Source of the DNA: a virus
Lineage: Duplodnaviria > Caudoviricetes
Virus record (IMG/VR): IMGVR_UViG_3300027969_000041
Strand: one strand, 5' to 3'
DNA: 64,000 bases
Position numbers and translations under genes: made by a program. Positions 19,711-48,976 of the stretch are shown one piece after another; the first letter of the stretch is position 1, and each line of letters begins with the position of its first letter. The notes under the pieces are model-generated. The model did no database searches. It was not told the DNA's origin and worked only from the letters and a program-made list of their open reading frames with translations.

Positions 19711-19714
19711 AATT

Positions 19715-21259: not shown

Positions 21260-21542
21260 TGGTCAACTTATCCCCAGTTACCAATTTGAAAACAGCAAAT
21301 TCTGTAGTGTTGAATTGCTTATTGAGCTTTTCGGCAAGGTTAATAGCATGTCCAGAATTTGAGAAACTAACTTTTTTGTATTTTGGGCCCAATTGCTGTG
21401 CCACAATGCTACTAGTTTTTAAGTTAATAGGCTTGTCCTGATAGAAAACAGCCCAGATAGCATCAGCTTCTAGAACTTGTTCTGTTTTGTAAGTCTTTTT
21501 GCTAGTAACTTCTAGCAAGACTTTGGGTTTTGGCCTACTCAT
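21243..21542 (-). CDS. Hypothetical protein
   Basis: 99 aa (MSRPKP...KYKKVSFSNSGHA); TAAATA at 21571-21576 upstream. Confidence 0.6.
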   Translation of the reverse strand: MSRPKPKVLLEVTSKKTYKTEQVLEADAIWAVFYQDKPINLKTSSIVAQQLGPKYKKVSFSNSGHAINLAEKLNKQFNTTEFAVFKLVTGDKLTNESKD

Positions 21543-32002: not shown

Positions 32003-34672
32003 TTACTCAAACGAGAAAAGCGAACCAAACGTATTTGTTTGGGTAGTAGAGTCTAGATCCCAGTCTAGTACTCCAATAAGGTTATCAAGTTTATTATTGA
32101 TAATAGTTGCTTCCATTTCAGCATGATCAAATGGCAGATCTTGGAACCATTTAGGTAAGCGTAGTTCATCTACAGGATATGCAATACTGGTGTAACCTAA
32201 CGGATTAGCTTTCACTTTGCAGACAATAACTTTCATACCATCTACTATTTGCATAGAATACTTGTCGCCGTTCATACGACGAAGGGTATTCCAATTAATA
32301 CTAGCCCGAACGTGTCCTGGCATATTTGCCTTACCGGACTTTTCTTCTTTCTTTTGGTATTCAGCAATGTTGTTGGCACGTTTAGGACTACCCTTCTCCC
32401 ATCCAGGACGAGATTTGAACTCAGTTCTAAATTCACTGATGCGATCTAGAATTTCTGTTTCTTGTGCGTTGTTAAGTACCTTTGTTAGAATCTCTTCTAA
32501 GAATTTCTGCATAAATTCTGGTGTGTCACTACGCTTAAGATCTAAACCCATGGCCTTAATTTTACCTGGCTTGCCATCTACATCACTGCGTTTGCCTTCT
32601 TTGTCATAGTACAACACAGCATATCGTTTTTTAGTAATAAACAATCCCTTGATGGCAACAATCTCGCGGCCTGCTTTAATAACTTCACCACGACTCTTTG
32701 GACAGTGGTGTGCATCCAACATAAACTGCGGAAATGTACTATTAACTTCTTCAGCAATTGTATCATACAACTGTACTACAGTATCTTTATTCCATGTTAT
32801 CTCTTTCTTTTCAATTTCCTTACGGAGACTTGAATAAGCACTAAAATAAGCAGAGTCTGTATCACCGTAGATAATACTTTTGCCTAAGTGATCATACTCG
32901 CCCGTAACTACTTCATTGATTTTACTAGCCATGTGTCGAGCAATGCCGCGGCCTGTAAGGGTAGTGGATTGACCAATTCGATTATCAAAGAAGCGACAAC
33001 CGGCGTTAAGAATGGCACCATACAAACTATTAAGCAAAATCTTTTTAACGAGCTGTCGCTTGTCCCAATATTCTTCTTCAATTTTATTACCTGCCTTAAT
33101 TGCATCCTTAAGTTTTGCCTGCATCTCTTTACGCTCTGCGTACCACCGTTTTAGCAATCCAGGAATAATACCTTCACGTTCATGAGTAATGATTGTACCA
33201 TTAGCACTAAGCATCCACGGCTTACCACTTTCAAATATTAGTTCGTAGATTTGTGCTCCACTCATAATATCAGTTTCACCGTTTTCCCAGTCAATGATAA
33301 TGTCGTGACTGCGATCTTGAGTCATAACAAATTCATATTCGTTAGCACCAAACTTGCCCTCCCATGCAGCCGCAAAAGAGTTACCTTTGGCAATCTTTTC
33401 TTCGATTTCCGCTTTAGTATAATCTTGGCGTAACTGTCCTACAATGGTTTCTGGACCCATGTTCAATGCACGAATTACAGATGGATACAAACTGTTAATG
33501 TCCATTGATCCAATATAATCGTGCAGTCCTTTTTTAGGATAAGCAACATACGCACCAGCGGCCTGATTAACAGCGTCCTCGTCACGCTTAGGGCGACTAG
33601 GAACAATAAGTCCCCTTGCATGGGATTCGTTTACAATAGCCTGTTCAGTAACAGCGACAGCACCCATTGTAGTTTGTAGTAACACAGTATTCTCATGTGC
33701 AATAGTACTGGCAAGATCTAAGAACTTTAATTTTTTATCTAGCTTGTTTAACAATGCCGTATCTTGTCTATTATATTCAATAAACTTTCGGAAGTCATTG
33801 TTATAAAGTTGATCTAGTGTACCTTCGTAGACTGTCTTGCTCTCACCTACCTCAGTTTCTCCGATGGCATCCAGTCGATAAGTGTGTCGTTCTTCGTATG
33901 TGTACTTGCGGTACAATTCGAGACTATCCAAATGAACACGACCAACAAGGTCATAAGTAACAGCCGCTTTTCCATATTTTTCGTATTCTCTTTTCTTAGG
34001 GAATTGATCCCACAAACAAAATCTACGTGTATCTTCTTTGCTGAGAACTTTAGTAACACGATTAACAGTATAGGGGATATCAAAACCTTCGCTATTCCAC
34101 CCACTGAGTACATCGCTATCCTGAATTAAATCTAAGAACGCATCTAACATCTCCGCTTCTGTTTCGAACAACATAGTGTTAGGAAACTCTTTGACTTGTT
34201 CTTCTGCTTGCTCCATAGTCAGTGTCTTTGGCGGAACTGCAAGACATACTAGTGTATCCAACCATTGTAGGTGAACAGCAATAGCAGTGATTGGCATAAA
34301 AGCATCTTCTGGAGTGCTATAGCCACGTTCTGGATCAAAGTCCACCTCGATATCAAAAAATGCTACATTGAGTTTTGGAGCATCCTTGCCTAGATAGTTT
34401 TCTTCTAGACAACGGAATACTGGATTGATGTCACTTTCAAATAATTTGTGACTACTGTGAATTTTTTGTTCTTTGACAAACTCTTTCCAGTTACGTGCAG
34501 TAACTTTGTTAAGATTGTCTCCGTAAATGGATTTATACTTACCCCGTTGGTCTGGGTAATAGAACATATACTTTGCAGGATATTCTTGATAAAGTCTACC
34601 CTTCTTTGGATCACGTTCGATAACCTGAACAATGTCCTTTTCTCGGTCCCACCGAGCATCTACATAACTCAT
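32003..34672 (-). CDS. polB: Family B DNA polymerase (gp43-like)
   Basis: ExoI FDIE, ExoII WNSEGFD, ExoIII YNRQD, motif A DINSLYPS, motif B KILLNSLYG, motif C YGDTDS; start MSYVDA at 34672 after SD AAGGAG. Confidence 0.96.
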   Translation of the reverse strand: MSYVDARWDREKDIVQVIERDPKKGRLYQEYPAKYMFYYPDQRGKYKSIYGDNLNKVTARNWKEFVKEQKIHSSHKLFESDINPVFRCLEENYLGKDAPKLNVAFFDIEVDFDPERGYSTPEDAFMPITAIAVHLQWLDTLVCLAVPPKTLTMEQAEEQVKEFPNTMLFETEAEMLDAFLDLIQDSDVLSGWNSEGFDIPYTVNRVTKVLSKEDTRRFCLWDQFPKKREYEKYGKAAVTYDLVGRVHLDSLELYRKYTYEERHTYRLDAIGETEVGESKTVYEGTLDQLYNNDFRKFIEYNRQDTALLNKLDKKLKFLDLASTIAHENTVLLQTTMGAVAVTEQAIVNESHARGLIVPSRPKRDEDAVNQAAGAYVAYPKKGLHDYIGSMDINSLYPSVIRALNMGPETIVGQLRQDYTKAEIEEKIAKGNSFAAAWEGKFGANEYEFVMTQDRSHDIIIDWENGETDIMSGAQIYELIFESGKPWMLSANGTIITHEREGIIPGLLKRWYAERKEMQAKLKDAIKAGNKIEEEYWDKRQLVKKILLNSLYGAILNAGCRFFDNRIGQSTTLTGRGIARHMASKINEVVTGEYDHLGKSIIYGDTDSAYFSAYSSLRKEIEKKEITWNKDTVVQLYDTIAEEVNSTFPQFMLDAHHCPKSRGEVIKAGREIVAIKGLFITKKRYAVLYYDKEGKRSDVDGKPGKIKAMGLDLKRSDTPEFMQKFLEEILTKVLNNAQETEILDRISEFRTEFKSRPGWEKGSPKRANNIAEYQKKEEKSGKANMPGHVRASINWNTLRRMNGDKYSMQIVDGMKVIVCKVKANPLGYTSIAYPVDELRLPKWFQDLPFDHAEMEATIINNKLDNLIGVLDWDLDSTTQTNTFGSLFSFE

Positions 34673-34683
34673 ATTTTCTCCTT

Positions 34684-34733
34684 TGTGTAATTTGCGGCCT
34701 ACACATACCTCTATGATCATTTGTGGCTGATCA
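34684..34733 (-). promoter_or_regulatory. Tandem RNA hairpins abutting the polymerase RBS (putative translational operator)
   Basis: TGATCA-GCCACAAA-TGATCA and TGTGTAG-GCCGCAAA-TTACACA, followed directly by AAGGAG-N5-ATG. Confidence 0.6.
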
Positions 34734-34743: not shown

Positions 34744-35034
34744 TTACATATTTATTAGTCTAATGTAGCCAATAAGATCAATAGTGACTAATAGAATATA
34801 ATTTGCTACCATACCTGTACTCTTACGTGTCCAAGCAGCCCATCCAAAGATGGCGCATTGTGTAATGAATATTGGATATAACCAAATAAACAATGGATCA
34901 GTTGCGCCGGCGGCAAGTGTAAGAGAGCAGCCGAGACTCATAGCCCATGCTGTAATTTCTAAAACAAAACGAGTAGGCCAAACTTTATAATCGGTCTTAG
35001 CCCATTCTATAATACCACTTAACAATTTATTCAT
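34744..35034 (-). CDS. Small membrane protein
   Basis: 96 aa with about three hydrophobic segments. Confidence 0.6.
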   Translation of the reverse strand: MNKLLSGIIEWAKTDYKVWPTRFVLEITAWAMSLGCSLTLAAGATDPLFIWLYPIFITQCAIFGWAAWTRKSTGMVANYILLVTIDLIGYIRLINM

Positions 35035-35659
35035 CGAGATTTTCTAACAACAAGTTAATGTTAATTACCATTCTATATTCGCTGTCTACCGGCGTCCAAT
35101 TGCAATGATAGTATGTAGAATCGAATATAAAAAGTTGTCCTTGCTTGGGTGTAACTTCCATTAATACTTTTGGCATTTCATCTAACTGTGTAAAAATATT
35201 TGTTTTTTTATCAAATAAAACAGTATTGCCATCAGCTGTGTTTACATAATATAATAGCGATATAAACTTTGAACCTTTTGGAAGAGCAACATTTTCTGGT
35301 ATTGTCATATCAGTATGAGGTGTTCTTAGACTTGATGTTTTATCTGGTGTATCAAAGTTTGCCTGTGCTCGTTCAACATAGTTAACAACATAATCTGTTC
35401 CTTCTAAGAACTTAAAAAGTATATAGTCAACTATCTTAACATTTTTATTAAGAGGCTGTCCGCCCTGAATAAAATAATAACTAAAAATATGTCGATCTGC
35501 AGGAAACACATCGTTACAGATTGCTGGATCGACTGAATGCGGCCTAAAAGACCATAGGCCTTCTGCTTTTAGTGTTTCTAAAAGAAATTCCTGATCTTCT
35601 TCATCTAAAAAATTATCGATTACAATTGGATCGAAATCTTTTTTAAGTTGAATAGGCAT
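35027..35659 (-). CDS. 2OG-Fe(II) oxygenase-like protein
   Basis: PHTD (HxD), LLYYVN, YHC (distal His), RMVININ. Confidence 0.7.
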   Translation of the reverse strand: MPIQLKKDFDPIVIDNFLDEEDQEFLLETLKAEGLWSFRPHSVDPAICNDVFPADRHIFSYYFIQGGQPLNKNVKIVDYILFKFLEGTDYVVNYVERAQANFDTPDKTSSLRTPHTDMTIPENVALPKGSKFISLLYYVNTADGNTVLFDKKTNIFTQLDEMPKVLMEVTPKQGQLFIFDSTYYHCNWTPVDSEYRMVININLLLENLDE

Positions 35660-35985: not shown

Positions 35986-36528
35986 TTATAAACGGGCGTC
36001 TATAATATTCCAATTGATAATTTTCCAATGATTTGTGAGATACCCTTTTTTGTCTGCTTGATAATCCAATGCCCAAGCATGTTCCCACCAATCGATTAAT
36101 AATATTATATCGTTCTTAATTTGATGATTGACAATAGTTTTGATCTCACCATTCTTGGCAAGATACACCCATCCACTGCCCTGTATGCCCATGGCAACTT
36201 TGGTAAATTCTTCTTTGAACTGGTCAAATGATTTGAAATGTTGCTCAATAAACTCTTTGGATGCTCCAACTGGTTCGTTTGTTTCATCTGGAATTTGTAG
36301 TTGCGGAAAATAGATACTATGTAAGTATGCACCTGCTTCGTTAAAATCTAAGTCACCTTCGCCTGCGTTGAAACGATTAACATAAGTTCTGTACAGTTTG
36401 CCATAATGATAATCTATAGCGTCTTCGCTTAGGCAAGGCTCTAGCGCATCGCGAGCATAGGATAACTTCACTTGTTCAAGTGGTTTAACCTCTTTACCCT
36501 CTACAACATATTTTATAAAATTAAACAT
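35986..36528 (-). CDS. sod: Fe/Mn superoxide dismutase family protein
   Basis: LSYARDALEP, YHYGK, LHSIYF, DWWEHAW: all four metal ligands are present; 10-aa N-terminal extension. Confidence 0.85.
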   Translation of the reverse strand: MFNFIKYVVEGKEVKPLEQVKLSYARDALEPCLSEDAIDYHYGKLYRTYVNRFNAGEGDLDFNEAGAYLHSIYFPQLQIPDETNEPVGASKEFIEQHFKSFDQFKEEFTKVAMGIQGSGWVYLAKNGEIKTIVNHQIKNDIILLIDWWEHAWALDYQADKKGYLTNHWKIINWNIIDARL

Positions 36529-37127
36529 TATTTCTTTTTACCTGAACGCATATTGGCTTGCCAATGTGCAAGTTGCCCTTTACGACCACCTTGTTTGGCA
36601 ATCTTTCTTAAACTGCTGATACTAGCATGTTTAGGAATACCGTGTCTAGCACTATCACCTTTGTCTTGCGGATTACGACCGTCAGCGAAGTTTTCCTCTA
36701 CATCCTGCTGACCTTCTATAGTCAATCTGTCTAATGCTATCGGATTTAATACAACATTTGGTTTCAAGCCCTTGCTGCTGGCATAGGCCACATACACTTG
36801 ATCTGTAGGTTCTATAACAAAACTTACACAATGCTTACCGGGCCAGTCTGGTTTGCCCACACTAAACCAAATGCCTATGACAGGAATAAATGGATGTTCA
36901 TCTGTGCTCAACCGACCATATTCTCGTTCGCCTGTGGCATCACGGCGTGGCTTTAGTCCTCCACTTTTCTTAATTGCTTCTAGCCTATTAGTACAATGAT
37001 AAACTCGTTGACCTACTATGTCCTGTCCAGGAAATAGATTTGTACCAGGAATATTCTTGGGGGGTCTAAGTCCTTGGTAGTTGGTAAATCCTTCGGCAAA
37101 GTTTTCAATTAGTTCTTGAATTTTCAT
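36528..37127 (-). CDS. Putative internal virion protein with an ADP-ribosyltransferase-like domain
   Basis: Start MKIQELIE at 37127 with SD GAGG; VYHCT...GGLKP...GIWFS resembles the NAD-binding lobe of KptA/PARP-like ARTs; basic C-terminal module. Confidence 0.5.
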   Translation of the reverse strand: MKIQELIENFAEGFTNYQGLRPPKNIPGTNLFPGQDIVGQRVYHCTNRLEAIKKSGGLKPRRDATGEREYGRLSTDEHPFIPVIGIWFSVGKPDWPGKHCVSFVIEPTDQVYVAYASSKGLKPNVVLNPIALDRLTIEGQQDVEENFADGRNPQDKGDSARHGIPKHASISSLRKIAKQGGRKGQLAHWQANMRSGKKK

Positions 37128-37128
37128 A

Positions 37129-37716
37129 TTACCTCTTAGGAGGTTGAGCACTGGCTACCATGCCGTTATAGTCAGCGTTCTTAAATTGAGGAATAGTATT
37201 CATAGCAATAGTTTCAGCTTCTCTAGCATGACTTGCTTTAATTTTAACTGCTGGTATCTCAGGAAACTCTAAACTGTAGACCCAAAATTCAAGTCCGGGT
37301 TTAGTCACTGTAAATGATTCCCCGTAGTGTTGTAGGTCCCAACTTGGTAATAATCTTTTTACCATTTTTGCGTATAAGCCTTGTCTTGAACCTTCTTTGG
37401 CAGCAAAGGTTAATCGTCTTACTGCGCCTTTTCTATCTGCTAGGAATGTTTTTAGAATATCAACTACTGTACCAAAAACTTCTGCGGCATTGCCCGTACC
37501 TGTAACACCCCATGTAGCATTTCCAGAAGATTCTACTTTAGCTGTAAATTCAATTTCCCAATCTCCCGGCGCCTCGTCCGAATCTTGTGCAGCAAAGAAT
37601 TTATAAGGAACTCCGCCAATTTCAAAATTAGCTATTGCTTGGTTGTCATCTTGAAATGTCCACTGCCATTGTTTATTGCCAGTGAACAATTCTGCAATAA
37701 ATTCATCGGCTCTCAT
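37129..37716 (-). CDS. Putative internal virion protein
   Basis: Start MRADEFIAE at 37716 (ATGA overlap); TGTGNAAEVFGTV...LTFAAKEGSRQGLY domain of unknown function. Confidence 0.55.
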   Translation of the reverse strand: MRADEFIAELFTGNKQWQWTFQDDNQAIANFEIGGVPYKFFAAQDSDEAPGDWEIEFTAKVESSGNATWGVTGTGNAAEVFGTVVDILKTFLADRKGAVRRLTFAAKEGSRQGLYAKMVKRLLPSWDLQHYGESFTVTKPGLEFWVYSLEFPEIPAVKIKASHAREAETIAMNTIPQFKNADYNGMVASAQPPKR

Positions 37717-38507
37717 TCGCAGTTCCACTTTCTTAATGCTAGAGCTTTGCGTGTAGGTTCACCGTTGGGCTTTTTCATTGGCCCTTTACTGCCACCCATT
37801 CTAGCACAAAATGATTTACGACGCTTGGCCGCCTTGCTTCCGGGTTTAAGTTTGCTAGGTTTAGTAGTAACTGCTGTTTGTAATTTGCTGCCTGGATTTT
37901 CTCTACGATAGCTAGCAACACCTTTAGCATTTAAGCCACCGTTCTTGTTCTTGCCTGCCTTGCGATGCCAAGCAGCTGATTCGGCAACATGACCATCTAA
38001 GAATGTATCGGCAAACTTTTTACAAAGAGTGCGTATAGCAGGATTGCGAGTTTCTTCTAAAGTAAATGTGCGTTCATCATGCTTATCATCACCTTGACTT
38101 GGGTCTTGATATCCGCAATATACTTTATGTACTATGGAGTCATTAATTAGTTCTGTACAGCTTTCGCCATAGCGTCCGTCTGCTGTAATATCACTGTGCT
38201 CGCTACATGGACTAAGAGTTGTAATAATGATACTACCTTTTGGCACAGGTTGACCATAATTACTTTCATATTCTTCAATGGCAGCTCTTTCTGCGTGTAC
38301 TCGACTACCATCTTCGTTGGGATAATTTACAGAGGCAGCTAAATTATTATCAGGATCTAGAACACCGGCAGCAACCATACCGTAGTGTTTGCTGTCCTCT
38401 TGTTGTCCTTCGATAACCATCTCACATAACTTAACTAGTATTTGATCTAGTTTTTCGTGGTTATGTATTTCGTAGTCATCTGACTCTAATAAATCGGTTA
38501 TTTTCAT
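37713..38507 (-). CDS. Zn-dependent deaminase (RibD/CDA fold) fused to a basic DUF6321-like module
   Basis: HAE...TLSPC...SC..LI...V..GYQDP; C-terminal AAWHRKAGKNKNGGLN...RRKSFCARM...LRKWNC. Confidence 0.65.
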   Translation of the reverse strand: MKITDLLESDDYEIHNHEKLDQILVKLCEMVIEGQQEDSKHYGMVAAGVLDPDNNLAASVNYPNEDGSRVHAERAAIEEYESNYGQPVPKGSIIITTLSPCSEHSDITADGRYGESCTELINDSIVHKVYCGYQDPSQGDDKHDERTFTLEETRNPAIRTLCKKFADTFLDGHVAESAAWHRKAGKNKNGGLNAKGVASYRRENPGSKLQTAVTTKPSKLKPGSKAAKRRKSFCARMGGSKGPMKKPNGEPTRKALALRKWNCE

Positions 38508-39859
38508 TTCTTCTTAGGAACACGGATTGGTAGTTTGCTGATGTCGTGACCTTGGTCTGCATTGGCAAATTCTTGTCCAACGTTTTGTTTGACTTTTACT
38601 TTTTGTGCAAATTGTGGATTATTTGCAACACCTACCATTAAGTTATGCTGTGCTTGACTAACAGAACGCTCTAACATGTTTGTCAGTGATTCCATATAAG
38701 CATCTTCATCTACTAGAGATATCATAGCATTAGAAAGATCTACACCGGCTGCTGCCTGTCCTCTGCCCCATTTAATTAAGTTACTACGACCCGTAATAGG
38801 TTGAGGATTTAATGGCTTACCGTCAATGGTAAGATTGTATTTTCTAAATTCTCTAGGATCATCTTCGCCTTCGGGATCTCTTGGCCCCCGACTAAACCCT
38901 GTAGTGTTGGCGTGATAGTTATTCCTATATACCCCTTCTACCTTGGCTTTTAATTCTGCTAAACGGGCTTGTAATTCTTCCTTCATTAAAGAATCATTGC
39001 CAGTCTGACGTTCTACTTCACGCTCTTTATCACTGATCATAAAGTTCATAATACCAACAACTGATTCTTGTGCCTGACTAAGTTTCATCTGTACCCATTC
39101 TGGTAAATCTTCTTCATCACCGATAGCATGTTCTAAATGTTTTAAGACTCGTAGCATAGTATGGATTTGATTCTTTACAAAACTACCTTCCATACTGTCG
39201 TGGTCTTGTGGATCAATGGTATCTAATTCTGTATCCGATACGTTGCCTTGATCGTCTTCCGCCACACCTTGCCCTAATGGACTTTTTGGTGGAACATATT
39301 TCTTTCCAGTCCTCGGATCCACTCTCTGCGAGGGGTGATTTCCATAGCCTTGTTCCGCCACACCTTGCTGATCTTTTTGTAACCAATCATAAACACTTAC
39401 TAGGTCACTGGGAAAGTCTTCGTCATAGTTAAATACAGACATAGCTCTTTTATTACCTAGGTCTTTTACTGCTATAGGCCAAGCTGCATCTAATATTGCG
39501 TTCTCGTCTTTGATATTTGGATTTGCGCCAAACACTTGTTTTGCTAAATCTTCAGCATATGAAGATTCTGCTAGAGGCTTTTTATGTTTTACATCACCTT
39601 GCTTCATTGCTTTTTTCTTATCTTTGTGTTGACCAGCACCACCCATCTTGGCGTTCTTAGCAACAAAGTTACGAGGCTTTGGAGTTTCTTTCTTTTCTTG
39701 TGCAAGGATGTTATCGCCCGGTGGGTTGCGTCTTTGCATACCGCCTAGTGTACTATCCATACTTGCAATGTCGCTTGTACTAGAACTTCCACCTGTTGCG
39801 CTTTCTAATGTGTAAACAGTTTGTTCTTTAGATTTTGTAACTTTAAATTCGTGTTTCAT
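38504..39859 (-). CDS. Modular putative internal virion polyprotein
   Basis: Short modules separated by TLE, LAE, VAE, VAE, MLE; includes a DLPEWVQMKL helical module. Confidence 0.55.
   Translation of the reverse strand: MKHEFKVTKSKEQTVYTLESATGGSSSTSDIASMDSTLGGMQRRNPPGDNILAQEKKETPKPRNFVAKNAKMGGAGQHKDKKKAMKQGDVKHKKPLAESSYAEDLAKQVFGANPNIKDENAILDAAWPIAVKDLGNKRAMSVFNYDEDFPSDLVSVYDWLQKDQQGVAEQGYGNHPSQRVDPRTGKKYVPPKSPLGQGVAEDDQGNVSDTELDTIDPQDHDSMEGSFVKNQIHTMLRVLKHLEHAIGDEEDLPEWVQMKLSQAQESVVGIMNFMISDKEREVERQTGNDSLMKEELQARLAELKAKVEGVYRNNYHANTTGFSRGPRDPEGEDDPREFRKYNLTIDGKPLNPQPITGRSNLIKWGRGQAAAGVDLSNAMISLVDEDAYMESLTNMLERSVSQAQHNLMVGVANNPQFAQKVKVKQNVGQEFANADQGHDISKLPIRVPKKK
39257..39368. repeat. 16-bp direct repeat TTCCGCCACACCTTGC (39257-39272 and 39353-39368), encoding QGVAE on the minus strand; near-copy at 41236-41250
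   Basis: Read directly; the third copy has 1 mismatch over 15 nt. Confidence 0.85.
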
Positions 39860-40212
39860 TTTTTCATCCAGTTTGCTACAGGACTTACAGTATATACGTT
39901 GTCCATTTCTTGACTGCGACTATTAGTCCAAACTTGCTTACTACCGTCACCAACTTGTTGTGAAGCATAATTAATGATATCCATTTCGGCCTCTGTGTAA
40001 GGTGCTAATAACGGATCACCACCGATCCAGTTTTCTGCTTTAGTAGGAAATTCAGGAGCACCTGCCATTGCCAATCCAAAACGATAATGTAACCGAGCAC
40101 TGCCGTGATTCATATTCTGTGCAGGCATTGTGGTTACACTTCTCATAGAAGACTTTACATTTTTAGAAATCTTCTTTATCCCGCCTTCGACAACAAATTC
40201 TTGTGCTCTCAT
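39856..40212 (-). CDS. Putative internal virion protein
   Basis: N-terminus MRAQEFVVE. Confidence 0.55.
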   Translation of the reverse strand: MRAQEFVVEGGIKKISKNVKSSMRSVTTMPAQNMNHGSARLHYRFGLAMAGAPEFPTKAENWIGGDPLLAPYTEAEMDIINYASQQVGDGSKQVWTNSRSQEMDNVYTVSPVANWMKK

Positions 40213-40213
40213 A

Positions 40214-40654
40214 TTAATTACTCTTTAGACTAGCACGTAGGAACCAACCGTGTTTTTCGTGTGCGTCCATGCGTTCTGCTAGGAAATTGCTGAAGCCATG
40301 CTTACCGGCAGCTTCTGCGGCATCGTATGTTTTCTTTAGGATAATAATCATCTTTTCATTATCCATTAATAATTCTTGCATCATTGCACCTGGAAGAAGA
40401 ATTTCAGTTTCGTCTTCTACCTTGCTCAACATATTAAACCGTGATAAACTAGCAGGAGTATATGTTTCTATTTTGCGAATATTTTCTGCAAAGTTGTCAA
40501 TGCTGCCGTATACTTCTGTATAGATAACATCAAATAATTGATGATATTCGTAAAAGTCTTTACCTTCTACATTCCAGTGAAAGTTCTGTGCTTTTAGCGC
40601 AAAACTAAATTCACTGGCGAAGGCAATTTTTGCAATTTGTTGTAGCTGTTCCAT
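40214..40654 (-). CDS. dps: Dps/ferritin-like DNA-protecting protein
   Basis: KAQNFHWNVEG..FYEYHQLF, DNFAENIR, HEKHGWFL; start MEQLQQ at 40654, with ATAAATA ending 7 nt upstream. Confidence 0.85.
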   Translation of the reverse strand: MEQLQQIAKIAFASEFSFALKAQNFHWNVEGKDFYEYHQLFDVIYTEVYGSIDNFAENIRKIETYTPASLSRFNMLSKVEDETEILLPGAMMQELLMDNEKMIIILKKTYDAAEAAGKHGFSNFLAERMDAHEKHGWFLRASLKSN

Positions 40655-40667
40655 GATACTATATTTA

Positions 40668-40922
40668 TTATTTTCCAAACCATAACTTAAACCATTCATC
40701 TGTGCCTGGTTTAATGTTTTGTTCTCGTTGTATTTGCCCTTTATTGCTGCCTACAACAGGCTGTCTTAGTGTAGCTCTATATTCTGATAGGCGCTCTGCA
40801 ACCCCTAATCCACCCATCATAGCGGCAGCTTTTAATTCGTGTATAGGATCTTCCGGAGCAAGATAAGCATCTTCTGCACTATCTTGTACTAGATCATCTA
40901 CGGTTATTCTGTATTGCTTCAT
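40668..40922 (-). CDS. Hypothetical protein
   Basis: 84 aa; C-terminal IKPGTDEWFKLWF; internal GVAE. Confidence 0.55.
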   Translation of the reverse strand: MKQYRITVDDLVQDSAEDAYLAPEDPIHELKAAAMMGGLGVAERLSEYRATLRQPVVGSNKGQIQREQNIKPGTDEWFKLWFGK

Positions 40923-43900
40923 TTACAATAATCTTATTGATCAATGCATCCATGATGTTTTGTACATCTTCGCTTACAGGCACATACTTATTCTCGCTGA
41001 TCTTTTTACAACTACCTTCTTCGCCTCGTGCTTTACCTGGAACTTTTCTAAAACCTGTCCAGCACTTATCGTAGATTTTACTGTTGCCGTGTGCTTCGCA
41101 CATACCACAATCTGGGCATACTGCTTCCATGTCAATGCTTTCATCGTGCTTCTTTTTACCGGCACAGTGAGCCTTTTGTGAGAATCCTTTTGGATGACTG
41201 CAATTGATACTGCTCTTGTACTTTTGACTCCACTCTTCCGCCACTCCTTGATGTATTCGTGTCAAATCACTAGTAAGTACATCTTTAGTAATACCACCAA
41301 AGTCAGACAAAATTGTAATGCGAGAATATTTACGATCTTTTGATTGGGCTTCAATCTTTGCTTTTCGTCCTAGGTAAGATACTATATCACCAACTCCTAG
41401 TTGTTTAACTGTTGCGCCGCCTAGGTTAACTGGCGTATCACCTGCAAAGTTGCCTTGTGGTCCCCATGGATCATCGTTTGCTGATTCACCTTGCTGTTTT
41501 TGTTTTTCGGCCCATTGCTTTTCAAACTCTGCTTTTGCTTGTGCAGCTCTTTCTTTACTTGCGTCGGACTTTTGTTTTTGTTGATCCCAAGCCTTGCCTA
41601 ATTTTGCGGCAGCACTTGTACGAGTAGTCTCAGTAAGTCGAGGGCGAATTAATGCTGTGGATAATCTTTCAGCAACTGGTTGTGCTACCGGAGCAGGTTG
41701 TTGTACTGCGGGTTGTTGTGCAGGTTGTTGTGCTGGTGGTTGTATTTGCATCTTATTCCCCGAAATGTCCATTAAATGTTTAATCCAGTTTGGTGGAAGT
41801 TTTTGAGCACCATAATTTCCGCCGTTAAATCCGTTATTCCAAAAAGCAAATTTTTGTTCTGCTGTTTCAGTAGGAACCCATTTGCCCTTGGTTACCTCTA
41901 CAGAACTTTGAGATAGTGCTTGACGCATTTTGGTAAAACTCATACCGCTGCCGCCAGCCGCTTCATCTCGTTCTGTAACTTCTACTTCTATTTTAACATG
42001 CTCGTACCCTGGAAACTTTCTAACTTTCATTAACGACGCCCGGAACTGTTCGGCCATTGCTTTTCTGTCCTTACCTACTACTATCCAAACTGTATCGTAT
42101 CTTGGAGGTTTTCCTGGTAGAGGATTAATCAATTCATGCTTAATCTTTTGAAGTAAAGATCCGCCGTCGTGATCTACTGTTGAAATATTTTTAGCATATT
42201 GAGGATATAACTTATTCCATGTTTGTACTTTAACTGCTGGAGGAATAGGATCATCCGGGCCTTCAGCATTGCCAATGAACAAATAAGGATCACCACCTGT
42301 TTTATTTGCCAGTGCAATAGCCTCACTAAACAGTTGTTGATGTCCCATGTGACCAACTAAACTACCGACAGCGACTACTGCTGTTTTACTTTCGCCCCTC
42401 GGGCGTTCTGTTCTGGCACTGGCCATAGCAGCGTTCTTAGCACTGATAACATCGCGCTGTTCTTGGCTAGTAACTTTGATAGGACCTAGGCGACTATTGA
42501 TAACAATGCCTTCGTAGTCTTTGCCTAATATATCTTTACCAATAATATTAGGATCTTCAATAATGGCTTTTTCTAATGACAGCTTAATAGGTTGTAGTTT
42601 TTCTTCAACTTCTCTTTTAAGTTGTTGACTTACACGATCACGCTTGCCTGATGTATCACTGACAATCTGTTTTAATTCTTCGATGTTGTCCAATGGATTA
42701 ATAAGTTCAGTAACATCCAGTCCTTCTTTTTGTGTAAGACTATTATCAATAAACATTACACTACCACTGCTACCTACACTTAATAATTCTTTGATAAACT
42801 TATTAGAATCTTCTAGGTCTTCTCCTGTGCCAGCATCTGTGACACGGAATGGTACTAACGCAAGTTGTACACCTTCTGGTAATTTGTCATACTGTATACC
42901 TACAAATTTTAATTTACCTTCTGGAGTTTCTGTAGCAAACGGCAAATACAATACTTCGCAGGTTACTTGTTTGTTAACTAAAAACTCCGCACCTAGTTTG
43001 CTGTCTACTAATTGAATAGCATTCATCATTTCGTTGAATAGTTGATCAAACAACTGAGCACGACCTAGTATATCTGGATCAGTTGTACCTTTTTGTTTAT
43101 GGTATGCTAGGAAACCTGCTTGATAGCGCGGCTCAGTACGGCTAGTACCCATAAAAGGTTTGCCGTCTGCGTTCTTACCGAAGCGACCACCAAATCCATC
43201 TACTTTAACATTTAACGGAATATTCTGTAATCTAAAACTTCCATTACCGTCGCTTATTTCATCTAGTAGATCTAAAAAATCAGGTGCCTTTAGATCACGA
43301 AGGTGTGGCATACCTTTGCGTAGCTGTGCTTTAACTTCTGCTTCTGCTAATGGTTGAGCGGGCTTCTTGGCATTAAACGCAGCTTCATAATCTTTGGCCA
43401 TTTGTAAAACTTGCTTACGCATGTTCTTCATACCTGTTTGGTCTAACAGATAATCTATGGCTGTCATTTTTGTTTTGAAATCAGTCGTTGGATCATCGGC
43501 ATCGATCATTTGAGCGCCTTTGCCAAAGTTAATCTTTAAGAATTCATTAACTACAATTTGATGTTGATCGGGCGTAAAATATTGTTTCATTAATTCTACA
43601 CTGCCAACAAAGCTGGCCATCATTTTAGTTTGATTGCCTTCGGCAGGTGTACCAAAGAACTGCTCAAATTGTAGACTCATGTCTTTGATATATTCACTGT
43701 CTTTTGGCTCCAACGGAACCATTACAGGAACACCGTTAATTTCTAACGGAATATTTTCTTCTGGAGTAGGTTGGCGATATTTGGCACGAACCCCACCGCC
43801 TCCTACACTAGCTACAGCAAAACTAAAATTGGCATCGTGGAATGGCGGTGGCGGACTATCTAAATCTGCAACATACTCTTTGCCGTCGTCGCCTCCGAAT

Positions 43901-44682
43901 ATTCTAACACCCTTTTTCTTACCGGCACCTGTTACTTTAGCAATATATTTGTCAGTAGGAGCAACTTTGGCCAATGAACGATACAGCCATTGACGGAATA
44001 CACCCTTCATACCTACTTCTAGATCTTCCCAAGCACTACCATGACTTACCTGTGCCCATTCTGTAGGAATTTCAAATCCTCTAGCATCTGTGGTATAATC
44101 ACTAAATTCTAAATCAACTTGTAAAGTAATAGGCGGTTCGTGTACTTGCCATAATGCTAACCATTGGTCACTTCCCTTTTTTGTACCTAACAATGTAGCA
44201 CTACCAATATTAGCGCCGATGTTTTTATGTACAAATTCTTCTATCTGTGGTTCTAATCTGCGATCAATTTGTGTATCAATGTCGCCGACTTTTTTCTTTA
44301 CACGTTGAAAGTCTTTGTCAGCGACGCCAATCTCTTTTGGGTTAGTATCTGACTCGGGCTGATTTGGATTAAATCTAGGATTTGGTTGACGCAACTGCAT
44401 AAACCATTTACTGCTTCCGCTAATAAATGTTTCTACTTCTTTTTCAATTAACTCTGGACTCCAAATTGGTCTGCCGTATTGTTTAGTGAATAAGTTATTG
44501 ATATCGACTAATAGTTGTTTTACCGCAGGCTGCATAGCGGCACGGTTCTTTGAATCTATTTTACCTGCACTATAGGTGCCTGGCACGCCGGTCCATCCAA
44601 CAGTAGGTGTACCTGCAGCAGTATGACTGGCAAGGTTACCGCCTTCGTTGATTTGTTTTTTGAATATATCCCTCAGTATCAT
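40894..44682 (-). CDS. Multidomain protein: Pol-beta-like nucleotidyltransferase + ligase-like (KxDG) adenylation domain + HIGH-family nucleotidyltransferase + small C-terminal modules
   Basis: GS(89-90)..GDID(133-136)..QVD(188-190); KVDG(493-496), EGIVI(724-728), K736; GHMGH(777-781), VVGKDR, GMSFTKMR; Cys-containing tail peptides. Confidence 0.6.
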   Translation of the reverse strand: MILRDIFKKQINEGGNLASHTAAGTPTVGWTGVPGTYSAGKIDSKNRAAMQPAVKQLLVDINNLFTKQYGRPIWSPELIEKEVETFISGSSKWFMQLRQPNPRFNPNQPESDTNPKEIGVADKDFQRVKKKVGDIDTQIDRRLEPQIEEFVHKNIGANIGSATLLGTKKGSDQWLALWQVHEPPITLQVDLEFSDYTTDARGFEIPTEWAQVSHGSAWEDLEVGMKGVFRQWLYRSLAKVAPTDKYIAKVTGAGKKKGVRIFGGDDGKEYVADLDSPPPPFHDANFSFAVASVGGGGVRAKYRQPTPEENIPLEINGVPVMVPLEPKDSEYIKDMSLQFEQFFGTPAEGNQTKMMASFVGSVELMKQYFTPDQHQIVVNEFLKINFGKGAQMIDADDPTTDFKTKMTAIDYLLDQTGMKNMRKQVLQMAKDYEAAFNAKKPAQPLAEAEVKAQLRKGMPHLRDLKAPDFLDLLDEISDGNGSFRLQNIPLNVKVDGFGGRFGKNADGKPFMGTSRTEPRYQAGFLAYHKQKGTTDPDILGRAQLFDQLFNEMMNAIQLVDSKLGAEFLVNKQVTCEVLYLPFATETPEGKLKFVGIQYDKLPEGVQLALVPFRVTDAGTGEDLEDSNKFIKELLSVGSSGSVMFIDNSLTQKEGLDVTELINPLDNIEELKQIVSDTSGKRDRVSQQLKREVEEKLQPIKLSLEKAIIEDPNIIGKDILGKDYEGIVINSRLGPIKVTSQEQRDVISAKNAAMASARTERPRGESKTAVVAVGSLVGHMGHQQLFSEAIALANKTGGDPYLFIGNAEGPDDPIPPAVKVQTWNKLYPQYAKNISTVDHDGGSLLQKIKHELINPLPGKPPRYDTVWIVVGKDRKAMAEQFRASLMKVRKFPGYEHVKIEVEVTERDEAAGGSGMSFTKMRQALSQSSVEVTKGKWVPTETAEQKFAFWNNGFNGGNYGAQKLPPNWIKHLMDISGNKMQIQPPAQQPAQQPAVQQPAPVAQPVAERLSTALIRPRLTETTRTSAAAKLGKAWDQQKQKSDASKERAAQAKAEFEKQWAEKQKQQGESANDDPWGPQGNFAGDTPVNLGGATVKQLGVGDIVSYLGRKAKIEAQSKDRKYSRITILSDFGGITKDVLTSDLTRIHQGVAEEWSQKYKSSINCSHPKGFSQKAHCAGKKKHDESIDMEAVCPDCGMCEAHGNSKIYDKCWTGFRKVPGKARGEEGSCKKISENKYVPVSEDVQNIMDALINKIIVNEAIQNNRR

Positions 44683-44683
44683 G

Positions 44684-45058
44684 TTAGCGTCCTAACTTGT
44701 ACTTATCTTTGACTACATCTTCACGGAAGTGATTGAATAACTTTTCGCAGAGTTCTTTGCGTAATTCTTCTGTGAATGTTTTTTCAGGACGACCTGTTAA
44801 CTTTTTGTGATGATAGTATTCCATGCAACCTTTGTTAACCATAGGTAAGAATTCTTTAATACATTGTTCTTTGTCTAACTCTTCTTTCATACTCTGATGC
44901 TTCATCTTTTTTGCAATGGGCAAGGCATAGTCTTTGTGTAGTTTATCGTGATCTAGAATGTACCAAAATAGGTCATCGTGCATCTCTTTGTCGTCACTAT
45001 TTTTAGACATCTCTTTGCTGATATCTATTGTTTTTCCAAAAAATTCATTTAATAACAT
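44684..45058 (-). CDS. Hypothetical (putative internal virion) protein
   Basis: N-terminus MLLNEFF; ATAAATA at 45112-45118 upstream. Confidence 0.55.
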   Translation of the reverse strand: MLLNEFFGKTIDISKEMSKNSDDKEMHDDLFWYILDHDKLHKDYALPIAKKMKHQSMKEELDKEQCIKEFLPMVNKGCMEYYHHKKLTGRPEKTFTEELRKELCEKLFNHFREDVVKDKYKLGR

Positions 45059-45140
45059 ATAATTAATATACCTAGATTTCGTGAGAACAGGATATACTCT
45101 CTCGTATAGAGTATTTATTACAAGTTGATCAAACGGAAAT

Positions 45141-45536: not shown

Positions 45537-45548
45537 AGTAAAGTATAT

Positions 45549-46220
45549 TTATGCCACTATTAGGTTCTCTCTTAGTACATATTCTTCTACAACCCGAACA
45601 TTATTACCTAAAAATAGACCAAACATGGCCAGTGTTTTATCATCCTCAACATACATAAATGGTGCTTGTACATAGGCGTTTCTGCCAGATAACCATCTAC
45701 TTGTAGAGTCTGCAATAGATATACTGCTGCCATATTTTTTAGCCCATTCTAAGAACTTAGGTCTAGAATCTAATGGCATGTTTGGTCTAAAGTTTATCTT
45801 GTATCTATATTTGTCATACGGAAAATTACTACAAATAACTTTCTTTTTACCACTGGACAGCATGAATTCTAGTTCTTCGTCGCTATCTGGCCCTGTAACT
45901 GCTTTGAGCCATTTGCCCATGTCTTTAACGATAGCATCTTTTAATTCACGATCCTTGCAAAAGAAGTTAAAATGACTTCCCTCTGCACGAATCTGTAAAT
46001 CCTTGTCTAGATAAGGTTCAACTACATTTAAAAATTCAATCACACAGGCTTTTTCCTGATCGGAGGATTTAACCCATGTGTTTGTTTTCTGTGCTGCCCA
46101 ATGTCTAGTGCCTTCTGCGCCAAGCCTAATAATCATACTAGACCTAGTTAGGATACATTCAATCTTAAAAGGCCACTTACCGTAGTAGAGCTTATTGATT
46201 TTCTGCTTCAGCCGGCTCAT
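45549..46220 (-). CDS. Hypothetical protein
   Basis: 223-aa ORF overlapping the ClpA 3' end by 29 nt. Confidence 0.55.
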   Translation of the reverse strand: MSRLKQKINKLYYGKWPFKIECILTRSSMIIRLGAEGTRHWAAQKTNTWVKSSDQEKACVIEFLNVVEPYLDKDLQIRAEGSHFNFFCKDRELKDAIVKDMGKWLKAVTGPDSDEELEFMLSSGKKKVICSNFPYDKYRYKINFRPNMPLDSRPKFLEWAKKYGSSISIADSTSRWLSGRNAYVQAPFMYVEDDKTLAMFGLFLGNNVRVVEEYVLRENLIVA

Positions 46221-48471
46221 CTTTGACCTTCATAATAGGCATAATATCAATGATATTAAGTTTTAGCTCGTTATTTGCAACTGTGACTTCGACTACGCCA
46301 CCGTTAATTAACTTACCAAACAATATCTCTTTACTCAGAGGCTTTTTAATCATTTCATCAATAGTACGTTGCAGTGGGCGAGCACCCATCTTACTGTCAA
46401 ACCCTTTGCTGATCAAGTACTCAACTGCTTCTGTGTTAGGTTTAACATGGATATTCTTATCTTTGACTAATGCATTAAGTTCGTCGATAAACTTCTTAAC
46501 AATTTTAATCATTGTTTGTTGATCTAACTTGCCAAACTTGATAACACCATCTAACCGATTACGGAATTCTGGAGCAAAGAACTTATTAACAGCGTCTTTC
46601 GGATCGCTATCGCGTTCCAAACTGCCAAAGCCGACGCTGTTCTTTTCAGCATCGGCAGCACCTAAGTTACTGGTTAGAATAACAATGGCATTACGACCAT
46701 CTGCTTTCTTACCATTACTGCCGGTGATAAAACCGTTATCCATTAATTGTAATAAAATAGTCAACACATCTGGGTGTGCTTTTTCAACTTCGTCTAGTAA
46801 TAGTACACAGTTAGGGCTTTCTTGCAAGCTGGTAATCAGCTGACCAGCATTGTCGTCAAACCCTACATAGCCCGGAGGAGCACCGATGAACTTGGCAACA
46901 CTGTGTTTCTCTTGAAATTCACTCATATCAAATCGTACAAGTTTGGTATTAAGATTTGCAGCCAGTTGTTTGGCAGCTTCTGTTTTGCCTACACCCGTCG
47001 GGCCTACAAATAAGAAGCTACCAATAGGTTTGTTAGGTGATTTTAAACCTGCTTGTGCAATAAACACTTTATCCAACAATGTTTCGATGGCTTTTTCCTG
47101 ACCATAGACCTTGGCTTTCATGTTCTTTTCTAGAGTTGCTAGATTAGCACCTTCTTTATTTGTTAGTTGTTCAACTGGCAATCCAGCAATACGACTAACT
47201 TCGAACAAAATTTCTTCATGATCAACAACACCGTCTTCTTGATCTTTGACTTTAAATCTAGCACAGGCACAGTCGATTAAGTCAATTGCTTTATCGGGCA
47301 ACTTCTTATCGCTCATATACTTGATAGAATATTTTACACTGTCAATAATTGCTTGATTAGTGATCTTAACACCGTGATGTTTTTCGTAATACTTCTTAAG
47401 ACCTTTAATAATCTTAATAGCAGTTGCTTCGTTAGGCTCATCTATGGTAACACGCTGGAATCGACGCATTAATGCACGATCCTTTTCAAAGTGTTTACGA
47501 TATTCTTCCCATGTGGTACTTGCTACAACTTTAATTGTTCCTTTACCTAGAGCAGATTTAAGCATATTGGCCATATCGTTGCTACTACCGTTGGCTGCTC
47601 CAGCCCCATTCATCATGTGTGCTTCGTCTATGAACAAGATACACTTGCCTTTTTTCTCAATAGCCCCAATAACAGTTTTGAGTCTTTCTTCAAAATCACC
47701 ACGATACTTGCTGCCTGCAAGCATAGCACTAATGTCTAGGCTATAAACAGTATGGTCCTGAATAAACTTAGGCACATTACCTTCAACAATCTTACGGGCA
47801 AGCCCTTCTGCGATGGCAGTTTTACCCACACCTGGATCACCAATCATAATAGCATTGGCTTTTGTACGGCGAGCAAGTACTAGTTGAATATCTTCAATCT
47901 CTTTTTCGCGACCAATAACAGGGTCAATCTTTCTATTCTTTGCTTTAGCTGTAAGATTAGTACAGAATTGTACAATCATCTTTTCTAGTTGTGCAGTTTG
48001 TCGAGATATACCCGGATCATCTGTAACTTGTTCTTCTTTGATAATTTCTTTCTTAATAAAACTAATGAATTGATCTTTGTCAATGTTAGCTTTACGAACA
48101 AAGTAACTAGCATGACTCTTTTTTTCTGCAAACATACTAATAAAACAATCAGCAGGTTCGATAATTTGACGACCACTAAACAATACATGTGTGAACGCAC
48201 GATTTAACATGCGGTCTACTGTGCTGGTCTTTTTAGGTTTTTCAGTATCAGCGTTGACAATTTCTTTTAGTTCATTAGAAATATATTGTTCGACATCGTC
48301 TTTTAAGACCTTGACATCTGTTCCGAAAGAAGTTAGTAGTTTTACAAACGATTCGTTATTCAGCATACTGAATAAAAAATGTTCTAGTGTAACGTACTCG
48401 TGACTATTCACACTGGCTACTTGTACAGCCTTTTCAAAGATTTCTTCTAGGTCTTTATTTGGTTCTAACAT
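46192..48471 (-). CDS. clpA: ATP-dependent Clp protease ATP-binding subunit (ClpA-like)
   Basis: N-domain EYVTLEHFL, two AAA+ modules ([16 protein letters not shown]), GYVG pore loop, VGF ClpP-docking loop, no ClpB middle domain. Confidence 0.92.
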
Positions 48472-48971: not shown

Positions 48972-48976
48972 ATTAT

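Follow-up and report, generated by a model that had tools for sequence, protein, structure and literature searches.

The 64-kb stretch analyzed here (64,000 nucleotides of a Caudoviricetes genome, IMG/VR record IMGVR_UViG_3300027969_000041, hereafter the window) carries, at positions 35986–45058 on the minus strand, a cluster of ten tightly packed open reading frames (ORFs, with overlaps of 1–4 nt) that form one co-directional operon, which is probably transcribed late. Sequence comparisons suggest that the products of eight of these genes, each fronted by a short N-terminal leader, are probably head-internal cargo, loaded through capsid targeting and protease processing of the T4 type, in a system that has been expanded into a modular set including polyvalent polyproteins. 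Injection of these proteins with the DNA is proposed with lower confidence than targeting and processing. We infer targeting, cleavage, retention in the head and injection from the leader motifs, their uniqueness and conservation, the junctions between modules, a protease encoded by relatives, and the payload families. An initial annotation of the region, made from the sequence alone, had quoted N-termini of its genes, and these, like all ten ORFs, are present on the minus strand at the coordinates in Table 1.

The window has a G+C content of ~38%, and its genes include replication and structural genes of the T4 type. For the family-B DNA polymerase (32003–34720, minus strand), the closest counterpart is in Sinorhizobium phage Phosso (50.5% identity), followed by those in Agrobacterium phage Atu_ph07 (46.7%) and Rak2/CBB-like jumbo phages (~43%). 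At least 600 IMG/VR contigs carry a polymerase akin to that of the window, the best 80 being 82–95% identical, and complete IMG/VR relatives measure 340–525 kb, with polymerase identities of 59–72%. Metagenomes of freshwater, lakes and rivers also contain the stretch (at least 10 studies); a megablast search with the 9-kb cluster found no match among 50,697 phage records. Given the polymerase kinship, the size of the relatives and the freshwater metagenome matches, the source is an uncultured freshwater jumbo myophage related to T4.

A strict leader pattern built from examples in the initial annotation, M[KR].{1,3}[DE][FLI][ILVF].{0,1}E, matched four times across all six frames of the 64 kb (at 40212, 38507, 37716 and 37127), each time at the start of a cluster gene (MRAQEFVVE, MKITDLLE, MRADEFIAE and MKIQELIE, all on adjacent genes), and did not occur in the window's 66 other ORFs. 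Among relatives, represented by 80 IMG/VR loci around polymerase homologs (913 kb in total), the pattern was found 88 times; 86 of the matches fall on the gene strand, and 69 coincide with an ORF start. All seven matches in one complete relative (G007; 352,754 bp, ~444 ORFs) are at ORF starts. Five complete genomes yielded four to seven matches each, a count that covers the 9-residue form and to which shorter type B and type C leaders are to be added, compared with 0–1 for a reversed-pattern control.

Three types of leader can be distinguished: A (MRAxEF[IV]xE), B (M[KR]Ix[DE]L[LI]E) and C (M[LI]LxEFF...[LI]xE). Leaders in the cluster end in a hydrophobic residue, any residue and Glu (FIAE, FVVE, LIE, LLE, INE, TLE or VVE). 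The initial annotation had credited most genes of the region with such peptides; four strict and four variant leaders bring the count to eight out of ten, the Dps/ferritin-like protein and the 84-amino-acid (aa) protein being without one. The variants are conserved as well. For example, M[LIK]LxEFF, found on the 124-aa and 1262-aa proteins, is kept in homologs, and a [LI]xE/GGNL site (a slash marks the candidate cut behind Glu) lies 13–17 residues behind this start in the 1262-aa protein and in the giant proteins of relatives. The 451-aa protein begins MKHEF..YTLE/SATGG, where relatives read ..YTLE/SATSGGTS and MKIxELLE/SATSGGTSSG. The superoxide dismutase (SOD) begins M[FY]NFIK..xE/G, which is kept in relatives, and more distant SODs start with MRDIITLLEE/ or MREFITLLEE/. 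Homologs of the 195-aa protein start with MRANEFITE/VF, MRASEFITE/VF or MRATEFIAE/LF. Leader codons differ at synonymous positions (e.g., GCA, GCT, GCC or GCG; ATT, ATC or ATA), and this free variation indicates that conservation acts on the peptide, that is, through selection at the protein level.

The sequences directly behind the leader Glu are not homologous to one another. They comprise DUF6321 (SAAWQK..GKNKNGG), NFADG, WSQKYK..C..PKGFSQKAHC and SATSGG modules, a ~120-aa family, and enzymes. A HMMER search of 1.84 billion representative sequences with the 118-aa family returned 92 relatives (clustered at 50% identity), 63 of which start with a leader, and the bodies of these leader-bearing proteins are just 30–58% identical; in G007, two copies adjoin a putative terminase gene. 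Homologs of the core of the 199-aa protein likewise nearly all begin with a leader, either MRAxEFIxE or MRINELLE.

The leaders resemble T4 head propeptides. As read from the T4 record (NC_000866), these are MKTYQEFIAE/A in internal proteins IPII and IPIII, MKTFKEFTSTTTPVSTITE/A (MKTFKEF..ITE/A) in IPI, MAKINELLRE/S in gp24 and ...GSFLTE/AEIGG in gp23. The last five residues of MRADEFIAE, on the 195-aa protein, are those of the IPII/IPIII propeptide, as the initial annotation had stated. More generally, type A leaders (MRAxEFIxE) have EF-I-x-E in common with IPII and IPIII, and type B leaders (M[KR]IxELLE) resemble the gp24 propeptide. In T4, replacing the Glu at P1 by Asp blocks cutting. The first 10 residues of T4 IPIII are enough for packaging, and within this capsid-targeting sequence (CTS), residues 4 and 7 serve targeting and residues 8 and 10 serve processing (PMC9026906). 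The F, I and E of these positions are retained in the leaders. CTS-like sequences also sit on variable basic proteins of T4-related phages (PMC9026906). Gene-start uniqueness, conservation at the peptide level and likeness to T4 propeptides together support the proposal that T4-type leaders here precede unrelated payloads.

A protease and a cut site of the expected kind are encoded by relatives. Peptidase_S77, the family of the T4 prohead protease gp21, was detected in three of five large contigs of close relatives and in five of five complete genomes of the clade (each of the eight relatives with a long enough or complete contig has it), so that the gp21-like protease supposed in the initial annotation has counterparts among relatives and none in the window. 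The head module of one relative (G001) has the order portal, 84-aa protein starting MLLNEFIYF (at the position of T4 gp67), acidic protein, protease (131816–132448), scaffold and capsid protein; type C-like starts (MLLNEFIYF and MILNELYSK) are found on this small protein in the portal–protease interval of the relatives' head modules. The G001 capsid protein is a gp23 homolog (BLASTP 3e-36 to T4 gp23) and has the sequence ..RKYLAE/AATSGATSSGNIATLNRV.. shortly before the segment that can be aligned with mature T4 gp23. The predicted cut site is thus YLAE/AATSGATSSG (AATSGATSSGNIAT after YLAE/), and the G007 counterpart reads ..YLKE/NASAGSTVSGNIAT. The AATSG or SATSGG motif also stands behind leaders, as in MKIQELLE/SATSGGTSSG of small proteins and YTLE/SATGGSSS in the window. 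Because the same motif is found at both places, the boundary between leader Glu and small residue would correspond to the putative capsid maturation site, an equivalence that assumes correct placement of the cut site, which was located in relatives by analogy with T4. Proteins of 58–62 aa that consist of a leader and SATSGGTSSGxxAT.. (L033:1968, L055:95, L073:2456 and L080:8080) copy the predicted mature N-terminus of the capsid protein (compared at G001 133586–134761, equivalent to L090:13586–14761), and may be mimics of the capsid N-arm or decoy substrates.

Several modules stand right behind a leader in one phage and behind an internal ..xE in another, which supports the initial claim that Glu sites border internal domains. 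In the window, such junctions are HVAE/SAAWHRK in the deaminase protein, DVEE/NFADG in the 199-aa protein and QGVAE/EWSQKYK in the 1262-aa protein. In relatives, MRANEFLTE/ and MRAQEFITE/ directly precede the WSQKYK module, DUF6321 comes right after leaders (e.g., MRAEEFITE/SAAWQK), and equivalents of the 1262-aa junctions RLTE/TTRTSAAAK and MCE/AHGNSKIYDKCW follow QGVAE/. The DUF6321, NFADG and WSQKYK modules are always preceded by ..xE/, whether N-terminal or internal. The 118-aa domain is mostly behind ..xE/ and, when internal (22 cases), has [LIVM]xE/ ahead of it in about half. Fossil leaders were observed inside the fused proteins P0174, P0185 and P0012 (..REMRAQEFIRKQLAE/G.. and ..VINELLE/NF..), indicating that gene fusions turn former N-terminal leaders into internal junctions.

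The commonest junction is QG[VMIL]AE, with 92 sites in the relatives' loci, the window and contigs G1 and G2 (G1 repeats the three sites of L080). With one exception, these fall within long open frames of the gene strand, mostly upstream of the polymerase gene, where the cluster sits. Three are in the window (Table 1). The 65 distinct ORFs concerned have one to four sites each, and modules between two sites span 32–388 residues. At 88 of 106 sites, the Glu is followed by G, A or E (P1'). The codons in 61 of 80 cases are CAAGGTGTGGCGGAA, a 15-mer that uses GTG and GCG (7% of Val and 6% of Ala codons in the phage, respectively). Nucleotide conservation is sharply bounded (positions −2 to +15), and the exact 15-mer is kept in complete genomes at just 59–65% polymerase identity (seen in G006–G010). 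Changes are mostly at third positions, with all 110 copies retaining the GA of the Glu codon and the Val at P3 replaced by Met only.

At this site, one left module can be continued by different right modules (VKIISANNFK-QGVAE-GLENIG, -APKSAAV or -DQLDDL), and a 27-residue mini-module between two QGVAE sites occurs both in the 451-aa protein of the window and in an unrelated ART-like architecture (P0018). Since modules are swapped exactly at QGVAE, the junction behaves as a recombination joint besides being a candidate cleavage site, and QGVAE probably also serves as an in-frame recombination joint. A more specific proposal, which we put forward tentatively and hold to be possible rather than probable, is that CAAGGTGTGGCGGAA is a dual-purpose cassette joint, acting as a prohead-protease site in the peptide and as a conserved in-frame recombination signal in the DNA, by which modules of 30–390 residues would be shuffled among injected polyproteins. 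As DNA, it may act by microhomology, gene conversion or nuclease targeting, and the two roles together may provide the clade with a built-in means of diversifying its capsid-delivered effectors. Among the elements described here, the nucleotide-fixed QGVAE joint is the most novel. A literature search for QGVAE returned only alpha-synuclein papers, and the available part of a survey of polyvalent proteins (PMC5512222) does not mention the 15-mer junction. In one IMG/VR contig of 524,565 bp (G010), QGVAE clusters are repeated at both ends and two polymerase copies lie near the ends in opposite orientation (18719–21430 and 508482–511193); chimeric assembly or a long inverted terminal duplication may account for this.

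Several of the payloads belong to recognizable enzyme families. The 264-aa protein matches Pfam dCMP_cyt_deam_1 (5e-9, 36.4 bits) and DUF6321 (9e-22), and the SOD matches Sod_Fe_C (7e-24, 84.3 bits) and Sod_Fe_N (9e-12, 45.7 bits); the deaminase, SOD and ferritin domains are above the Pfam gathering threshold. PHROG matches in the 1262-aa protein cover residues 38–417, 469–616 and 743–946, the last as a cytidylyltransferase at 1e-13. The segment of residues 448–745 had no sequence-profile match. It contains a KVDG motif, its AlphaFold2 model has a predicted local distance difference test (pLDDT) score of 89, and all of the 50 best matches of this model in the PDB are ATP-dependent RNA/DNA ligases (E 5e-4 to 1e-2, probability 0.84–1.0, template modeling [TM] score 0.26–0.42), which supports a predicted ligase-type nucleotidyltransferase fold. 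For residues 14–447, a pol-beta-type nucleotidyltransferase is a lead only (atlas score 0.94). Pfam and NCBIfam searches of segments at E ≤1 gave only sub-threshold matches, of which FAD_syn (0.03) is the most fitting and agrees with an HxGH fold, and PDB sequence searches with three proteins gave nothing useful. No family match was obtained for the 124-aa protein in Pfam or PHROG, and only sub-threshold ones for the payload of the 195-aa protein in Pfam, PHROG and NCBIfam.

The 199-aa protein, an identical copy of which is encoded on a 201-kb contig, has 1648 database relatives, in which its NFADG module is fused to deaminase, GNAT, ImmA-like, ParB and DUF6321 domains. Its core may have an ART-like fold, but the model points that way only weakly (pLDDT 60.7), as the top PDB matches, to ART-fold proteins (KptA/Tpt1 and others), are not significant (E 0.07–0.7, TM score ~0.3), the atlas lead (ART-PolyVal, 0.82) is below the reliable range, and 16 family members had no Pfam match at E ≤1. 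Hence, of the payloads named in the initial annotation, the deaminase and SOD stand, as do two nucleotidyltransferase folds (seen here as a cytidylyltransferase and a ligase-type fold); the third nucleotidyltransferase is retained as a lead, and the ART-like assignment is weak. The C-terminal modules are very basic (isoelectric point [pI] 10–11.5), as are T4 internal proteins. Searches of the cluster proteins in Pfam, PHROGs and NCBIfam found no peptidase family; an ImmA-like HExxH domain is present in one relative (P0012). We found no paper on DUF6321.

Table 1. Features of the cluster in the window, listed in the direction of transcription; a slash marks a candidate cut behind Glu, and the parts of the 1262-aa protein are given by residue.
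Feature	Position (strand)	Leader or N-terminus	Content
ATAAATA late-promoter-like motif	45112..45118 (−)		60 nt upstream of the first cluster gene
124-aa protein	44684..45058 (−)	Type C, MLLNEFFGK	N-terminus M[LK]LxEFF kept in 17 homologs
1262-aa protein, putative polyvalent cargo	40894..44682 (−)	Residues 1–13, MILRDIFKKQINE/GGNL	Parts in the next four rows
1262-aa protein, residues 14–447			Pol-beta-type nucleotidyltransferase (lead only), ahead of PLAE/AE
1262-aa protein, residues 448–745			Predicted ligase-type nucleotidyltransferase fold, behind PLAE/AE
1262-aa protein, residues 743–946			HxGH cytidylyltransferase
1262-aa protein, C-terminal part			Small basic Cys modules behind PVAE/, RLTE/, QGVAE/ and MCE/
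QGVAE junction 15-mer	41236..41250 (−)		In the 1262-aa protein, ahead of its WSQKYK..PKGFSQKAHC module
84-aa protein	40668..40922 (−)	No leader, MKQYRIT..	N-terminus kept in 30 relatives, without a leader-like end
Dps/ferritin-like protein	40214..40654 (−)	No leader	Pfam Ferritin, 7.6e-18, 65.2 bits
118-aa basic protein	39856..40212 (−)	Type A, MRAQEFVVE/GG	Mature pI 9.3; best-conserved cargo family (putative)
451-aa multi-module protein	38504..39859 (−)	19-aa leader, MKHEF..YTLE/SATGGSSS	Basic module (pI 10.1) ending PLAE/
QGVAE junctions	39353–39367 and 39257–39271 (−)		In the 451-aa protein, on either side of the 27-aa mini-module
264-aa protein	37713..38507 (−)	Type B, MKITDLLE/	Cytidine deaminase (CDA)-fold deaminase, HVAE/ junction, DUF6321 basic module (pI 11.2)
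195-aa protein	37129..37716 (−)	Type A, MRADEFIAE/LF
199-aa protein	36528..37127 (−)	Type B, MKIQELIE/NFAEG	Core possibly of ART fold, DVEE/NFADG junction, basic C-terminal module (pI 11.5)
Fe/Mn superoxide dismutase	35986..36528 (−)	10-residue extension MFNFIKYVVE/G, a divergent leader

The following route would account for these features. The propeptide would bind the scaffolding core, as the T4 CTS does, and the protein would thereby be built into the prohead. A gp21-type (S77) prohead protease would then cut behind the terminal Glu of the leader and also at the internal Glu junctions of multi-module proteins (QGVAE/, xLAE/, xVAE/ and xVEE/NF). These cuts would release the deaminase, the ligase-type, HxGH-type and probably pol-beta-type nucleotidyltransferases, the SOD and a possible ART-fold protein, together with many small, very basic modules (DUF6321, NFADG, WSQKYK-Cys and SATSGG). 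The released proteins would remain associated with the DNA in the head and probably reach the host along with it.

Like the T4 system of CTS and internal proteins (IPI–III and Alt, with gp21), the cluster has a short propeptide that ends in hydrophobic-x-Glu on unrelated, dispensable-looking proteins, its predicted mature products are basic, relatives encode a protease of the gp21 family, and the payload genes are hypervariable among related phages. The T4 CTS, however, has 10 residues with a Tyr at position 4, whereas the leaders here have 8–9 residues, lack this Tyr and fall into three types. Moreover, T4 has three small proteins, whereas the set described here, known from its sequence, consists of large enzymes and multi-module polyproteins with internal junctions, and each complete relative carries four to seven genes with the 9-residue leader. 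In T4-type cassette shuffling, short conserved borders such as PeSL elements and the flanks of internal-protein genes coincide with the exchange of variable genes. Such shuffling joins whole genes, whereas the joint here is a 15-nt in-frame coding sequence inside proteins that links modules.

Polyvalent proteins of phages and conjugative elements (PMC5512222) also combine unrelated effector domains in one polypeptide, as do the 1262-aa protein (nucleotidyltransferase lead, ligase-type fold and cytidylyltransferase) and the 264-aa protein (deaminase and DUF6321). The available text of that survey predicts packaging of these proteins and their delivery together with the DNA, and describes extensive shuffling of their domains (nucleotidyltransferases, deaminase, ART-like, GNAT, ParB and peptidase; PMC5512222). 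Processing, if any, is there ascribed to their own zincin-like peptidase domains, whereas the junctions here resemble prohead-protease sites and entry would be by a T4-type leader. In phiKZ-like giant phages, many head-internal ejection or inner-body proteins are cut after Glu by a related protease, with a small P1' residue, and their propeptides are cut at several sites (e.g., by the SPN3US protease gp245 at A-x-E; PMC10052503). These propeptides, however, are mostly long (111–254 residues; PMC10052503) with no shared short tag, and both lineage and gene set are unrelated to the T4-core jumbo clade.

The closest experimental parallel comes from cyanophages. The available part of one study reports that mass spectrometry of CsCl-purified virions of S-CREM2 detected ORF137 (four peptides), ORF154 (three peptides) and ORF156, and that cytidylyltransferases recur in cyanophage virion proteomes (PMC10665884, Table 3). 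In our analysis, ORF137 ends in DUF6321 behind ..MNE/, ORF154 is a cytidylyltransferase that starts MKNFSSFLTE/ and contains FGRYNPPHKGH, and ORF156 is a pol-beta-type nucleotidyltransferase. S-CREM2, S-CBWM1, S-SZBM1 and S-SCSM1 resemble the window in having DUF6321 and a cytidylyltransferase/NMNAT-like family (..GR[WY]NPPHKGH..), but their virion-associated enzymes, kinases included, are single-domain proteins scattered in the genome, and the study, as far as it was available, mentions no leader, cleavage site or polyprotein arrangement (PMC10665884). By analogy, the S-CREM2 detection offers what is the only experimental support for the packaging proposed here. More widely, proteins with a match to the DUF6321 module are encoded by T4-like cyanophages and by pelagiphages. 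In S-SM2 (L104:2174–2602) and P-TIM68 (L105:1958–3079), proteins with a WSxKYK..PKGFSQKAHC module are encoded beside terminase and capsid genes, and one of them starts MKTLKQFLKE; DUF6321 or WSxKYK basic modules are also present in S-B43 (L246:1975–3258) and S-CREM2 (L247 and L248). CTS-like starts on such cyanophage and pelagiphage module proteins are MKTLKQFLKE, MKNFSSFLTE and MQTFSMFFSE.

A number of observations weigh against head targeting and processing as an explanation. The generic tripeptide [ILVM]xE is no denser in the cluster proteins (0.5–3.6 per 100 aa) than elsewhere in the window (1.67); the initial annotation was right to warn that [ILV]xE is common, and the enrichment it had looked to is not seen as tripeptide density. 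The leader signal is positional. Co-occurrence of leader and S77 protease is seen in relatives only, and a tblastn search of the window with a relative's portal, protease, scaffold and capsid proteins gave no match. In Phosso, the cultured relative (469 kb), there is a single chance match to the leader pattern and the genes upstream of the polymerase have no leader; hence, the leader system is not common to all relatives. Some internal junctions have no Glu, and P3 is not hydrophobic at some junctions (QADE/, KTDE/ and RTNE/ before NFADG). The canonical T4 late promoter TATAAATA occurs three times in the window, where eight are expected, and not in the cluster, and no RNA run had a match to the stretch. 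The S-CREM2 authors themselves note, in the part of their study that was available, that soluble enzymes or contaminants may co-purify with virions (PMC10665884). Finally, the synonymous-site invariance of QGVAE exceeds what a protease site alone explains.

This last observation bears on the possibility that the shared N-termini, like the QGVAE and ENF junctions, are mere footprints or tools of cassette shuffling (microhomology joints) and that the proteins are ordinary cytoplasmic enzymes. The near-invariant 15-mer with its rare codons, its sharp bounds and its exact retention at 59–65% polymerase identity, the joining of one left module to different right modules, and the fossil leaders inside fused proteins would all follow from shuffling. 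We nonetheless judge this reading improbable, as it does not fit the leaders, which vary synonymously and are hence selected as peptides, resemble cleaved T4 propeptides and end in Glu as at the capsid-protein maturation site. Even the residue constraints of QGVAE (Glu invariant, P3 Val changing only to Met) fit a protease site, and shuffling and sorting can coexist.

It is also unlikely, if somewhat less so, that the leader proteins are head-core or scaffold accessories that are processed and then degraded or expelled, or that act only in assembly or DNA condensation. In T4, most proteins of the core are cleaved into fragments that leave the head, and IPIII has an effect on assembly (PMC9026906); here, the small SATSGG proteins mimic the N-arm of the capsid protein, the core protein at the gp67 position has the type C start too, and many of the modules that would be released are small and basic, suiting DNA condensation. 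A role in assembly alone may apply to the small modules. Intact catalytic families (deaminase, SOD, cytidylyltransferase and ligase-type nucleotidyltransferase), however, would be pointless if destroyed and therefore argue for retention over a role in assembly only, for which T4 Alt and IPI and the virion-associated cyanophage enzymes are precedents. Very improbable, in our view, is a leader that serves as a recognition tag for a modifying enzyme, as in ribosomally synthesized and post-translationally modified peptides (a radical-SAM enzyme or the adjacent 2OG-Fe(II) oxygenase), or as a secretion or membrane signal. An oxygenase gene of this kind does adjoin the cluster at 35027–35659, and in G007, a radical-SAM gene lies inside the leader-gene region. 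The latter, however, has no homolog in the window and matches only 3 of ~200 related loci, leaving the linkage of leader and radical SAM unsupported, and the leader is short, acidic and amphipathic, unlike a signal peptide, with T4 head propeptides as its best matches.

Two cluster genes fall outside the proposed cargo set. The 84-aa protein is probably not cargo, and the Dps/ferritin-like protein, which probably starts at Met16 (40654), has relatives whose N-termini read MEQLQQ or MLSDDLK. As to transcription, the initial annotation had pointed to late-type ATAAATA motifs at 45112, 45546 and 40662, which are indeed present; the canonical late promoter is the part lacking from the cluster. One copy (40662–40668) is just upstream of the Dps start and a further one is at 45546–45552. 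The window has seven copies in all (first bases 9069, 18385, 34755, 40668, 45118, 45552 and 54401), six of them within 60 nt upstream of a gene start on the same strand; one precedes the DNA polymerase gene. The motif is depleted three- to fivefold overall, as in G007, where there are 38 copies versus ~116 expected and 33 of the 38 are 7–80 nt upstream of gene starts, often just 11–19 nt from the ATG; the genes concerned include tail-fiber and head genes, SOD (11 nt) and one leader gene. Among type A leaders in relatives, 7 of 39 have ATAAATA within 30 nt upstream. A late-type promoter is thus plausible, and ATAAATA looks like the late promoter of the clade, with very short mRNA leaders.

Immediately upstream of the cluster (46192–49795), the window encodes a protein-quality-control set of ClpA/B-type AAA+ chaperone, peptide deformylase and DnaJ, which is syntenic in G001 and G007, and beyond it a holin with three transmembrane segments and a GH19 endolysin. 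At 110–8806, a 2898-aa ORF is followed by four paralogs of 342–529 aa with similar N-termini (MxYxL..), which look like a tail-fiber set.

If the proposed targeting and processing are correct, a widespread freshwater clade of giant phages would tag its injected proteome in a readable way, and leader-starting genes and QGVAE-bounded modules would be candidates for weapons or protectants of the first minute of infection, including a deaminase, nucleotidyltransferases, an RNA/DNA ligase-like enzyme, a capsid-borne SOD and small DNA-binding proteins. The T4 capsid-targeting principle would be extended from three small proteins to large modular polyproteins, and Aravind's "polyvalent proteins" would be tied to a concrete route of loading and processing. 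The leader and junctions would also provide a sequence rule for mining anti-defense effectors of uncultured phages and short tags for loading foreign proteins into large capsids, and the nucleotide-invariant QGVAE would be a rare case of one sequence selected both as peptide and as DNA.

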